A DNA stretch of 63,820 nt, filler included, from Acidimicrobiia bacterium (lineage in GTDB: Bacteria; Actinomycetota; Acidimicrobiia; Spongiisociales; JAENVV01): assembly GCA_041577335.1 (NCBI GenBank). It is 3 parts of 3 records of this genome, joined end to end, with 100 filler letters (N's around TTAATTAATTAA, not from the genome) between each part and the next. Parts side by side here need not be neighbours in the genome. Positions count along the whole stretch, not along the records: positions 47,725 to 63,820 come from JBFGJH010000074.1; 2 more parts are not named here. One strand, written 5' to 3'. The notes beneath the pieces were generated by a model, which made no database searches, was not told where the DNA came from, and saw only the letters and a program-made list of their open reading frames with translations. Shown one piece after another: positions 23,767 through 60,036 of this stretch; the stretch's first letter is position 1; each line of letters starts with the position of its first letter. Both the position numbers and the translations under genes were made by a program.

Positions 23767-23866
23767 NNNNNNNNNNNNNNNNNNNNNNNNNNNNNNNNNN
23801 NNNNNNNNNNTTAATTAATTAANNNNNNNNNNNNNNNNNNNNNNNNNNNNNNNNNNNNNNNNNNNN
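23767..23866. other. Artificial contig-joining linker
   Basis: N-run, TTAATTAATTAA (stops in all frames), N-run. Confidence 0.98.
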
Positions 23867-47624: not shown

Positions 47625-47724
47625 NNNNNNNNNNNNNNNNNNNNNNNNNNNNNNNNNNNNNNNNNNNNTTAATTAATTAANNNNNNNNNNNNNNNNNNNN
47701 NNNNNNNNNNNNNNNNNNNNNNNN
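47625..47724. other. Artificial contig-joining linker
   Basis: N-run, TTAATTAATTAA, N-run. Confidence 0.98.
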
Positions 47725-57651: not shown

Positions 57652-58086
57652 TCATGGTTTGGGGGTGAGGACGGCGACGGGAATAGTGCGGTCTGTTTTG
57701 GTCTCGTAGGTCGCGAAGCTGCCGTAGTCTCTGAATCGCGCATACAACTCGTCGCGAACTGCGCCCTCCAACTCGACCGTGGCGGTGCATTCGATGACTT
57801 TGTCGAGGTCCTGGACCGTCACATCGGGCTCAGCCATCATGTTGAGGATCCAGGCGGGGTGCTCGTCCCCTCCGCCTGCCGAACCAGTCACGAGGTAGTT
57901 GTCACCGTCTTTGAGATGGGCCAGCGGCTTGGGACGCTTCTTTCCGGTCTTGCGACCGGTTGTCGTCACGATGATCACAGATGCGGGCTTCTCTCCACCA
58001 CCCATCCGCTTTCCGCCGGTCACTTGATACAGCTTGGCGTGGAGCTCGGTGGCAATCCTGGTCATCGTGCTGGCGATAGATGTCAC
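57652..58086 (-). CDS. Deazaflavin (F420)-dependent oxidoreductase, Ddn/FDOR-A family
   Basis: TTTGRKTGKKR, S.GG...HPAW..N, YETKTDRTIPV. Confidence 0.9.
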   Translation of the reverse strand: MTSIASTMTRIATELHAKLYQVTGGKRMGGGEKPASVIIVTTTGRKTGKKRPKPLAHLKDGDNYLVTGSAGGGDEHPAWILNMMAEPDVTVQDLDKVIECTATVELEGAVRDELYARFRDYGSFATYETKTDRTIPVAVLTPKP

Positions 58087-58126: not shown

Positions 58127-58744
58127 CTACGGTCGTGCTCCGAAGTCAGGCTCTTCGGTACGAGTCCGTTTCAGCTCCCAGAAACCGGGAACCGTCATCA
58201 CCTTTTGGAGACCGTCCCACAGCTGCAACGCCAAATCTGTTTCGGGCACCCGGCTGATCACCGGCCCGAACATGCCAACCCGGGCCCCGTTGGCGTCGTC
58301 AAAGGCGATGATCGGCGTTCCAACGTCATCGCCGGCGAGCGCCAGCCCGAATTCCATTCGCCTGCGGATCTCGGCGTCCCACGCAGCCTCGTGGTATGCA
58401 GCTGCGTGATCGGTGGATACCCCCGCCTCGGCGAGTGCCTCTTCGATCGAGAAGGTCTTCAGTTCTCGGTCGTGGTGGATTCGTTTGCCGAACTCCCAAT
58501 AGGTCCCGAAGACACCCTCATTGCCGTCCGCGGCCCGGACCGACTCCATCACCCTGAGCAGGTCATGGGTGCGCTTGTAGCGGCTGTAGGCCCGAGAGCC
58601 CTCTTCCACCTCATTCTTGAACAGCAGGCTGATCGGCTCCCAGGCGACCCGGAGGTCGCGTTCAGGAGCCACCTTTTCGACGACCCACCGGGCCGTCACC
58701 CAGCACCACTTTCAGATGGGATCGACCCAAAAACTGATTTCCAC
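58127..58744 (-). CDS. DsbA-like mycoredoxin-2 (Rv2466c family), probable selenoprotein (UGA = Sec at codon 11)
   Basis: GTG 58744 with GGAAGGA RBS; MEISFWVDPI*KWCWVTARW; TGA at 58714-58712; GDDVGTPII, FGPVIS, FWELKRTR. Confidence 0.85.
58679..58697 (-). promoter_or_regulatory. Candidate bacterial SECIS hairpin
   Basis: GACGGCCC-GGU-GGGUCGUC; the G-starting apical loop begins 23 nt after the UGA. Confidence 0.65.
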
Positions 58745-58797
58745 TCAAGTCCTTCCCAGAAGGACCCTAGTGAGCGCGCCTTTGCATCCCTCCTGGC

Positions 58798-60036
58798 ATG
58801 CTTGACTCACAGACAATGGACATGGCACGTGATCTCCCGCTGTTGGGCGGGCTTGGCCTCGCAATCGTGGCTGCGGTGTTCCTGGCCGCCGCCGAAACGG
58901 CGTTGCTCCGACTTCCCATCGTCCGCGCCCGCACGCTGGCCGAAACCGGCCGGCGAGGTGCTCGATTGCTTCACCTCATTGAACGGCTGCCCACTGTTCT
59001 CAACACCGTGCTCCTGGCTGCACTGCTGGCTCAGATCACTGCAGCCACGATCACGGGAATCCTCGCCGAACGTTGGTTCGGCAACCTCGGCGTCACCATT
59101 GCGTCGGTGATCCTCACAGTGGTCCTCTTCATCTATGGCGAGGCCATTCCCAAGACATACACCGTCCGCCACACCGACCGGGTCGGGCTGTGGATCGCCG
59201 TCCCGGTGTCCATGCTGGTAGCCATCCTCCGTCCGATCGTCGCTCTACTCGTGTGGATTGCCGATATTCAGATTCCGGGCCAAGGCATCACGACTTCGCC
59301 GACTGTCACCGAAGACGAGCTTCGCCATTTGGCGACCCGGGCAGCCCGCGAGGGCGAGATAACCTCCGATGACCACGAGCTCATTGAACGAGCGTTCAAG
59401 TTCGGCGACCGCCAAGTGGACGATGTCATGGTGCCCCGTCTCGACATCATCGCCGTCGAGGCCGACCTCGAGGTGCGAGCCGCCCTGGCCTCGGCGCTGG
59501 AACATGGGCACCGCCGCCTGCCGGTCTATGACGGGACGATTGAGAACATCATCGGAGTCGTCAGGCTCCGTGATCTGGTGAAGCACTTCGAAAAGGAGAC
59601 GCTGGTGCGCGAACTGGTGGAACCGATACTCGTTGTGCCCGAGTCAAAGCCGATCCTCGCCTTGCTCCAAGAGATGCAATCAGAGACCAAGCACGTCGCG
59701 ATCGTTGTTGATGAGTACGGCGGCACTGCCGGCTTGGTCACCATCGACGACATCGTGGAGGAGCTTCTCGGAAGCGTGGCCGACGACACCGACGATGCCC
59801 CAATTCGGGAAACGATCATGGGCTGGTCTATTGACGGGTCGTTGCCCGTGGAGGATCTCAAGGAACTCATCGGCGAGATCCCGGACGGTGATTGGAACAC
59901 CGCAGGTGGCTTGGTGATGGGGCTGGTCGGCCGGGTCCCGGCAGTCGGAGACGAGGTAGAGCTTGCCGGCGGGCGGCTGCGAGTCGAGGCCATCCGCGGG
60001 CGCCGCATCATTCGCCTCGACGTCATCACCGGTTAG
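58798..60036 (+). CDS. Hemolysin/CNNM (DUF21)-CBS-CorC_HlyC protein
   Basis: AAAETA, GEAIPK, VMVPR, VDEYGGTAGLVT.DDI.EE; start could be 58816. Confidence 0.92.
   Translation: MLDSQTMDMARDLPLLGGLGLAIVAAVFLAAAETALLRLPIVRARTLAETGRRGARLLHLIERLPTVLNTVLLAALLAQITAATITGILAERWFGNLGVTIASVILTVVLFIYGEAIPKTYTVRHTDRVGLWIAVPVSMLVAILRPIVALLVWIADIQIPGQGITTSPTVTEDELRHLATRAAREGEITSDDHELIERAFKFGDRQVDDVMVPRLDIIAVEADLEVRAALASALEHGHRRLPVYDGTIENIIGVVRLRDLVKHFEKETLVRELVEPILVVPESKPILALLQEMQSETKHVAIVVDEYGGTAGLVTIDDIVEELLGSVADDTDDAPIRETIMGWSIDGSLPVEDLKELIGEIPDGDWNTAGGLVMGLVGRVPAVGDEVELAGGRLRVEAIRGRRIIRLDVITG

Follow-up and report, generated by a model that had tools for sequence, protein, structure and literature searches.

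A small gene on the minus strand of an Acidimicrobiia genome raises the question of whether the TGA at its eleventh codon ends translation or is read as selenocysteine (Sec). The genome is a MAG of 3.38 Mb in 128 contigs with a completeness of 90.75%. The stretch of DNA that we analysed, which we call the window, is 63,820 nucleotides long and consists of three contigs joined by runs of N at positions 23767-23866 and 47625-47724. Positions 1-23766 come from contig C51, while the gene in question is positioned on the third contig (C74). The original prediction was that the locus hides a selenoprotein, namely a Sec-containing mycoredoxin. The Sec genes of the host, the conserved TGA and a conserved hairpin all support it, and we conclude that the gene very probably encodes a genuine Sec-containing reductase of the Rv2466c family. 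Its UGA would be decoded by means of SelB and the hairpin, and its role in thiol-disulfide exchange is proposed by analogy.

Reading frame, start codon and protein family

The coding sequence of this Rv2466c-like member of the DsbA superfamily occupies positions 58127-58744 (minus strand) and comprises 205 codons followed by a TAG stop, an assignment based on the reading of the frame, on profile and structure matches and on the orthologues. It starts with GTG at 58744-58742 and stops with TAG at 58129-58127. A ribosome-binding site, GGGAAGG, can be read from the sequence at 58751-58757 (minus strand) and leaves a spacer of 6 nt to the GTG. The N-terminus reads V-E-I-S-F-W-V-D-P-I, TGA, K-W-C-W-V-T-A-R-W, and the TGA (58712-58714, minus strand) is the only one in the 205-codon frame. 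The orthologues have the start codon and the length in common with this gene, and purine-rich stretches are found 5' of their aligned starts. This agrees with the original prediction, according to which the open reading frame listed from 58699 continues upstream through one TGA to a GTG with a good ribosome-binding site.

In the table-11 listing of open reading frames, the gene begins at an internal GTG (Val16, 58697-58699, minus strand) and spans 58127-58699, which gives a truncated product of 190 amino acids. The same start recurs in the databases. When a collection of 5.8 billion proteins was searched, 57 of the best 120 clusters, the window's own 190-residue call among them, began exactly at the internal (M/V)TARW residue and 2 more began further in; the remaining 61 were full-length CP[WFY]C forms. 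The source names on the best clusters include 'disulfide bond formation protein DsbA' and 'DsbA family protein'. Truncated entries make up 59 of these 120 clusters and the mis-annotation is persistent, just as the original prediction had expected this gene to be annotated as truncated.

The internal start could be the correct one if the TGA were a true stop. The real product would then be the 190-residue protein from GTG 58699, and the ten upstream codons would be a short leader peptide or non-coding. A GTG is indeed present there and every gene caller starts at it, as the 57 clusters do, with the 2 others starting further in. However, the ten upstream codons show conservation at the protein level, with the peptide FW[VI]DP[ILV] and aligned ATG or GTG starts in 9/9 orthologues and in 80/80 loci of the relatives described below. 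They also align with strand β1 and the nucleophile of solved structures, and the truncated product would be without its catalytic residue. Moreover, GTG 58699 overlaps the base of the hairpin stem, to which it contributes its second and third nucleotides as stem positions 17 and 18, and by eye no ribosome-binding site is evident before it. We consider a true stop at this codon extremely unlikely and describe the read-through product from here on.

This product matches PF22234 (Rv2466c-like) with 128 bits, the cut-off being 27, over profile positions 1-180 of 180. Its score against PF01323 (DSBA) is 20.5 bits, which is below the cut-off of 25.6, and a search with the NCBIfam profiles gave no matching family. 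The best matches among solved structures are the Rv2466c chains 4ZIL, 4NXI, 4WKW and 5XUR (E about 1e-33, residues 4-202), so that the predicted homology to Rv2466c/mycoredoxin-2 is borne out by both profile and structures. In the structure alignment, the TGA-encoded residue 11 of the query is matched with chain residue 19, and Cys14 with residue 22, both inside the motif FWFDPLCPWCW. Rv2466c is described as a mycothiol-dependent, DsbA-like cytosolic reductase (Mrx2) (PMC11841060, PMC6178380), in which Cys19 is the attacking nucleophile and Cys22 the resolving cysteine (PMC11841060). The UGA is positioned on the nucleophilic cysteine, as had been claimed from the sequence of the locus. The resolving cysteine of the UxxC site is encoded by TGC at 58703-58705 (minus strand), and this codon is TGC or TGT in 81/81 sequences.

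Single-Cys variants, in which the resolving cysteine is lost, also occur in the family, with CPWS in L032 (genome G006) and CPWA in L172 (genome G682). The latter genome, which is from outside the class, was considered as a carrier of a Sec form and rejected, as the TGA there is the stop that ends the frame and the site reads CPWA.

Conservation of the TGA codon and of the downstream hairpin

Within a set of 41 related genomes, 9 (this one included) carry an orthologue with exactly one TGA (66-70% identity), and 11 more have a match without TGA. We aligned 16 of the sequences and left out L030 (at a contig edge), L035 (matched only from residue 43) and L036 and L037 (about 25% identical). The TGA is at codon 11 in 9/9 Sec forms, and the 7 Cys forms have TGC or TGT. 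These TGC/TGT homologues are 35-54% identical, and the TGA aligns with the first cysteine of their CP[WF]C.

A scan of one genome per species gave 345 loci encoding relatives, and the TGA is found at codon 11 in 80/80 of the best loci. Nearly all of these 80 are labelled Acidimicrobiia or Acidimicrobiales; Candidatus Spongiisocius, Candidatus Microthrix and the isolate Salinilacustrithrix flava are among them. Sampling the class evenly (401 genomes) gave matches in 154 genomes, and the best 30 loci contained 22 with TGA and 8 with TGC or TGT. In a phylum-wide sample (401 genomes), Sec forms were found only inside the class. The 80 named loci and the loci of the class sample overlap, so the counts are not summed. 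The gene sits in a large Acidimicrobiia clade of predicted Sec-containing proteins.

One Sec form, L095 (CAXMSE010000039.1), comes from a MAG that carries the label 'uncultured Gammaproteobacteria'. The locus has 60% identity to the query and is Acidimicrobiia-like, and its contig is probably mis-binned or mislabelled.

A TGA in a MAG might also arise from a nonsense mutation, mark a pseudogene or be a sequencing error. The same-genus genome G001 is without the gene, and the active-site dipeptide of the window protein is aberrant, with Lys for Pro, both of which would fit a decaying or misread gene. On the other hand, the TGA is at the same codon in the 80/80 relatives and in 18 'DsbA 2' sequences of the GOS dataset, and apart from this codon the frame is unbroken, with 66-79% identity to relatives. 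In addition, Logan contigs from two studies (X1 record 6 and X5 record 13) agree letter for letter, with 0 differences across the TGA and the AAG that follows it; one of the two may be the source sample. Among the sequencing runs listed as holding the sequence, none was an RNA run. Since the TGA is conserved, mutation or error is already refuted as an explanation, and we give it practically no weight. The original prediction had proposed to confirm the TGA in sequencing data, and the same TGA is present in the contigs of the two independent studies. It had also held that absent Sec machinery together with TGC or TGT in the close homologues would speak against a selenoprotein; instead, the sel genes are present and the close homologues have TGA.

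The AAG codon (Lys, 58709-58711, minus strand) gives the site U-K-W-C. When the U of UGA is numbered as nt 1, positions 4-5 are AA in 1/81 sequences and CC in 80/81, which means Lys in the window and Pro (CCN) in 80/80 named relatives. Two base changes are needed for this replacement. Among the relatives examined U-K-W-C is unique, the others having a predicted U-P-W-C. The active site could suffer from having Lys at a position where Pro is otherwise invariant. It is doubtful that U-K-W-C represents an adaptive retuning of the Sec redox centre, including a role in an F420/mycothiol network, rather than drift. If it did, the enzyme would differ in redox potential or in the substrates that it accepts, and it may work with the F420H2-dependent reductase whose gene begins 41 nt downstream. 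The Sec clade would then put selenium into the mycothiol/F420 redox network of Acidimicrobiia.

The TGA is followed by a hairpin of 7-9 bp that begins 14 nt past it and is positioned at 58678-58698 (minus strand), with the 5' arm at 58698-58691, the apical loop at 58690-58686 and the 3' arm at 58685-58678. In the numbering used above, nt 17-25 of the window pair with nt 29-37 around the loop GGU, the first G of which is 23 nt after the A of UGA. In all sequences, nt 18-24 pair with nt 30-36 around a loop (C/A)G(G/U)UG; the window loop is CGGUG, or GGU if C25-G29 pairs. The window fold has an energy of -15.5 kcal/mol (z = -2.9), and 1 of 200 shuffles was as good. Together with the recurrence of the hairpin in 80/80 relatives, this favours the predicted SECIS element with a G-starting apical loop 23 nt downstream.

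Standard pairs are present in 98.8% of 576 cells (81 sequences, 72 distinct), 7/576 being unpaired, and the observed pairing was reached by 4/500 shuffles. Pair 21-33 changes from G-C to A-U twice and pair 18-36 once, while pair 24-30 changes from C-G to U-G six times. The double changes are confined to two pairs and three cells, and the covariation is thin. Its score is not above that of the shuffles (163/500 reach it) because 4/8 pairs never vary; most stem columns are invariant, hence uninformative on pairing.

We also compared codon usage inside and outside the hairpin. In 9 close orthologues, the degenerate codons of the hairpin are invariant in 5/6 cases and those elsewhere in 8/95 (Fisher p = 9e-5), the codon range of the hairpin having been picked after the alignment was seen. 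Across 81 sequences, the mean codon entropy is 0.54 bits inside the hairpin and 1.31 bits outside (p = 6e-4). The five four-fold stem codons have 0.23-0.50 bits compared with the gene-wide mean of 1.31, while the loop codon Arg19 is free (1.42 bits). Thr17 is encoded by ACG in 78/81 sequences, whereas other Thr codons prefer ACC. Since the sequences are kin, the p-values overstate the support.

The Sec forms fold with -12.8 ± 2.2 kcal/mol (67 distinct sequences) versus -7.1 ± 3.5 kcal/mol for the Cys forms (15 distinct), and most Cys forms are without the hairpin though they encode similar peptides. L146 (G100:C1) is a Cys form with TGC in which the hairpin is kept letter for letter (-15.9 kcal/mol), and L138, L140 and L142 from the same genus (g80) are TGA forms. 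It seems that Sec was recently replaced by Cys in L146 and that its hairpin is a fossil SECIS.

A search of Rfam over 58500-58800 with E up to 10 gave a chance match to a lncRNA alone. A longer hairpin, in which nt 20-27 pair with nt 63-70 (-30.9 kcal/mol, z = -2.2 in a 70-nt fold), was rejected as the SECIS because its outer arm is not conserved in the orthologues. In runs X5 and X6, the depth of the contigs rises about ten-fold in a spike that coincides exactly with the block of the hairpin and WCW (window 58677-58712). Short high-depth unitigs here are common to many co-occurring relatives, which illustrates how invariant this block is.

Sec machinery and genomic neighbourhood

The search for selA, selB, selC and selD that the original prediction had suggested found all four in the genome, above the curated cut-offs. 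The tRNA-Sec gene (selC) scores 81.3 bits and is called by ARAGORN as tRNA-SeC with the anticodon tca. The genes selA (424 bits) and selB (338 bits) are neighbours, and selD scores 381 bits. The selD gene, which is not part of the window (contig C64:8321-9244, locus L017), is predicted to encode a selenoprotein as well. It carries a TGA at the U of GSG-U-ACK, and about 34 nt downstream of this codon is a hairpin with a 7-8 bp stem and a GUU loop. Many high-GC3 genes of the window, PEPC for example, use TGA as an ordinary stop, and the genetic code is therefore not reassigned.

The statement in the original prediction that the use of Sec is uncommon in Actinobacteria does not fit this lineage, where SelB is above the cut-off in 37/41 genomes of the order (36/40 without the unpublished genome G036, which the first count takes in). 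According to a 2026 preprint, the Sec machinery is universal in Actinomarina, another order of Acidimicrobiia; DsbA and Rv2466c are absent from the main text of that preprint. The same-genus genome G001 (98% complete) contained no homologue of the gene with either of two queries. The idea that this genome had lost the Sec trait together with the gene was rejected, as its tRNA-Sec scores 80.2 bits; its best selB match has 205.6 bits, which is below the cut-off.

Even if translation continues, the UGA might be read by another tRNA (Cys or Trp), or the Sec machinery might insert Cys, and the protein would mostly be without selenium. Cys forms are functional in other lineages, a Cys form (L146) keeps the hairpin intact, and the selenium content of the protein is predicted from its sequence. 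However, the genome keeps a full dedicated Sec pathway, the SelB-type hairpin is under purifying selection in TGA forms only, and TGA is a stop elsewhere in the window. We regard a product mostly without selenium as very unlikely and retain the reading of the UGA as Sec.

The neighbouring gene at 57652-58086 (minus strand), 41 nt past the stop of the selenoprotein gene, encodes a PF04075 F420H2-dependent quinone reductase (Ddn-like, 104 bits). An operon with an F420H2-type reductase was considered and rejected, as the two genes are adjacent in 1/80 loci (L076), and there the reductase is upstream. The genes ffh, CNNM and PEPC are next to the gene in 0/80 loci. Synteny is clade-specific only, as observed in every second locus (40/80 loci, 78 ORFs). 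Of these 40 loci, 10 have a gene for an FrhB/FdhB-like F420 protein upstream, 8 have one for an M1 peptidase and 5-6 have one for a Zn alcohol dehydrogenase. The FrhB/FdhB-like gene is upstream on the same strand in L066, L068, L078, L088, L098, L102, L106, L108, L112 and L114, and luciferase-like monooxygenases are downstream in 3 of the 40 sampled loci. Neighbours linked to F420 appear repeatedly, but among loci that are kin to one another.

Proposed mechanism and relation to known families

We propose that, at UGA codon 11, the hairpin 14 nt downstream would recruit SelB carrying Sec-tRNA(Sec), and that selenocysteine would be inserted in place of termination, as in the standard bacterial Sec pathway. 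The predicted product is a 205-residue cytoplasmic thiol-disulfide reductase with a DsbA fold and the redox centre U11-K-W-C14. By analogy, the selenolate of U11 would play the attacking role of Cys19 and C14 the resolving role of Cys22, and the two residues would pass through a selenenylsulfide cycle. The substrates may be mixed or intramolecular disulfides, possibly also nitro or quinone compounds, in the defence against oxidative stress.

Recycling of the enzyme would depend on a low-molecular-weight thiol. Mycothiol is the probable candidate, although we see its chances of being the cofactor as about even. In the genome (90.75% complete), MshD was found with 224 bits, above the cut-off of 163. 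An MshA-like protein scores 423 bits, below the cut-off of 462.5, and MshA is by far its best-matching family. MshC was not found in this genome at its 90.75% completeness; a candidate was rejected, as the sole strong match was CysS (453 bits, cut-off 340).

Next to Rv2466c, two groups of metagenomic selenoproteins are relevant. The 'DsbA-like protein' selenoproteins reported from the Sargasso Sea in 2005 (Zhang et al., PMC1088965) are of the COG2761/FrnE type. They resemble the window protein in belonging to the DsbA superfamily, in having UxxC close to the N-terminus, at the equivalent place in the structure, and in having a hairpin after the UGA. They differ in the surroundings of the site, since the pattern in 9/9 sequences is ...[DT][YF]x-U-PWC[YFWH]... 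or a variant of it, and most have a G[IV]P... loop. Identity with this family was rejected, and TARWV, WELKRT and DPIuP occur 0 times in its supplement. A 2026 review of prokaryotic selenoproteins (PMC13188914) lists 'DsbA-like form 1' under PF01323, with NIP15863.1 as its exemplar, citing PMC1088965. The window product scores 20.5 bits against PF01323 and stays below the cut-off of 25.6 for this form (PF01323/COG2761, FrnE type). The review lists two PF01323 'DsbA-like' forms only, with no separate entry for an Rv2466c-like branch, and PF22234, mycothiol and mycoredoxin are not mentioned in it. In the literature searched, 'Rv2466c' is nowhere paired with 'selenocysteine', and the combination of 'mycoredoxin' and 'selenocysteine' returned nothing that, from titles and the openings of abstracts, appeared to be on this topic.

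The second group is the family 'DsbA 2', which is already contained in the GOS selenoproteome (Zhang & Gladyshev 2008, PMC2398784). The table of that paper gives it as UxxC, pfam01323 'e-value>0.001', with 18 sequences and 235 Cys homologues. In its supplementary file 3, the entries under '#DsbA 2' read FWVDPI-U-PWCWVTARWVV...GFWELKRTR...PDFGERP, and TARWV occurs 18 times, equal to the 18 tabled sequences. By eye, the window protein and the 'DsbA 2' consensus share motifs from end to end: FWVDPI-U-PWCWVTARWVV, LLRVMES, GDD[IV]GTPII, FGPVITRV and GFWELKRTR...P[DE]FGERP. They also share UxxC and a weak match to pfam01323 (20.5 bits vs 25.6 here). The difference is U-K-W-C in the window and U-P-W-C in the GOS sequences. 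The portions of that paper that we consulted give neither a host lineage nor a link to Rv2466c, which was characterised later. On the basis of the shared motifs the window gene belongs to 'DsbA 2', and the selenoprotein family has therefore been known since 2008. What is new is the link of 'DsbA 2' to Rv2466c, the persistent mis-annotation and the unique U-K-W-C site.

These points matter for annotation, since a selenoprotein that is widespread in Acidimicrobiia continues to be predicted as a fragment of 190 residues that lacks the catalytic one. Placing 'DsbA 2' in the Rv2466c/mycoredoxin-2 family gives an old metagenomic family a biochemical hypothesis, which a cultured carrier, Salinilacustrithrix flava EGI L10123, makes testable. 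Its gene (locus L105) is of the U-P-W-C form and is located at about 3,616,784-3,617,389 of NZ_CP133888.1. The Sec and Cys forms within one genus (L138, L140 and L142 versus L146) offer a natural comparison, and the Lys variant adds another such case for asking why Sec has been retained.

When compared with other bacterial SECIS elements, the window hairpin is similar to that of the selD gene in this genome, with its 7-8 bp stem and GUU loop. It differs in that no Rfam family matches it, and the binding of SelB is predicted here. A bulged U like that of the E. coli fdhF SECIS is not evident in the window hairpin.

The closest characterised relative is Rv2466c of M. tuberculosis. The host of the window protein is an Acidimicrobiia MAG, and the mycothiol and nitroreductase roles are predicted for it by analogy only. 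The two proteins belong to the same Pfam family (PF22234) and align over the full length, with U11/Cys19 and C14/Cys22 in register, whereas the window protein would have selenocysteine for the nucleophilic cysteine and has Lys for Pro.
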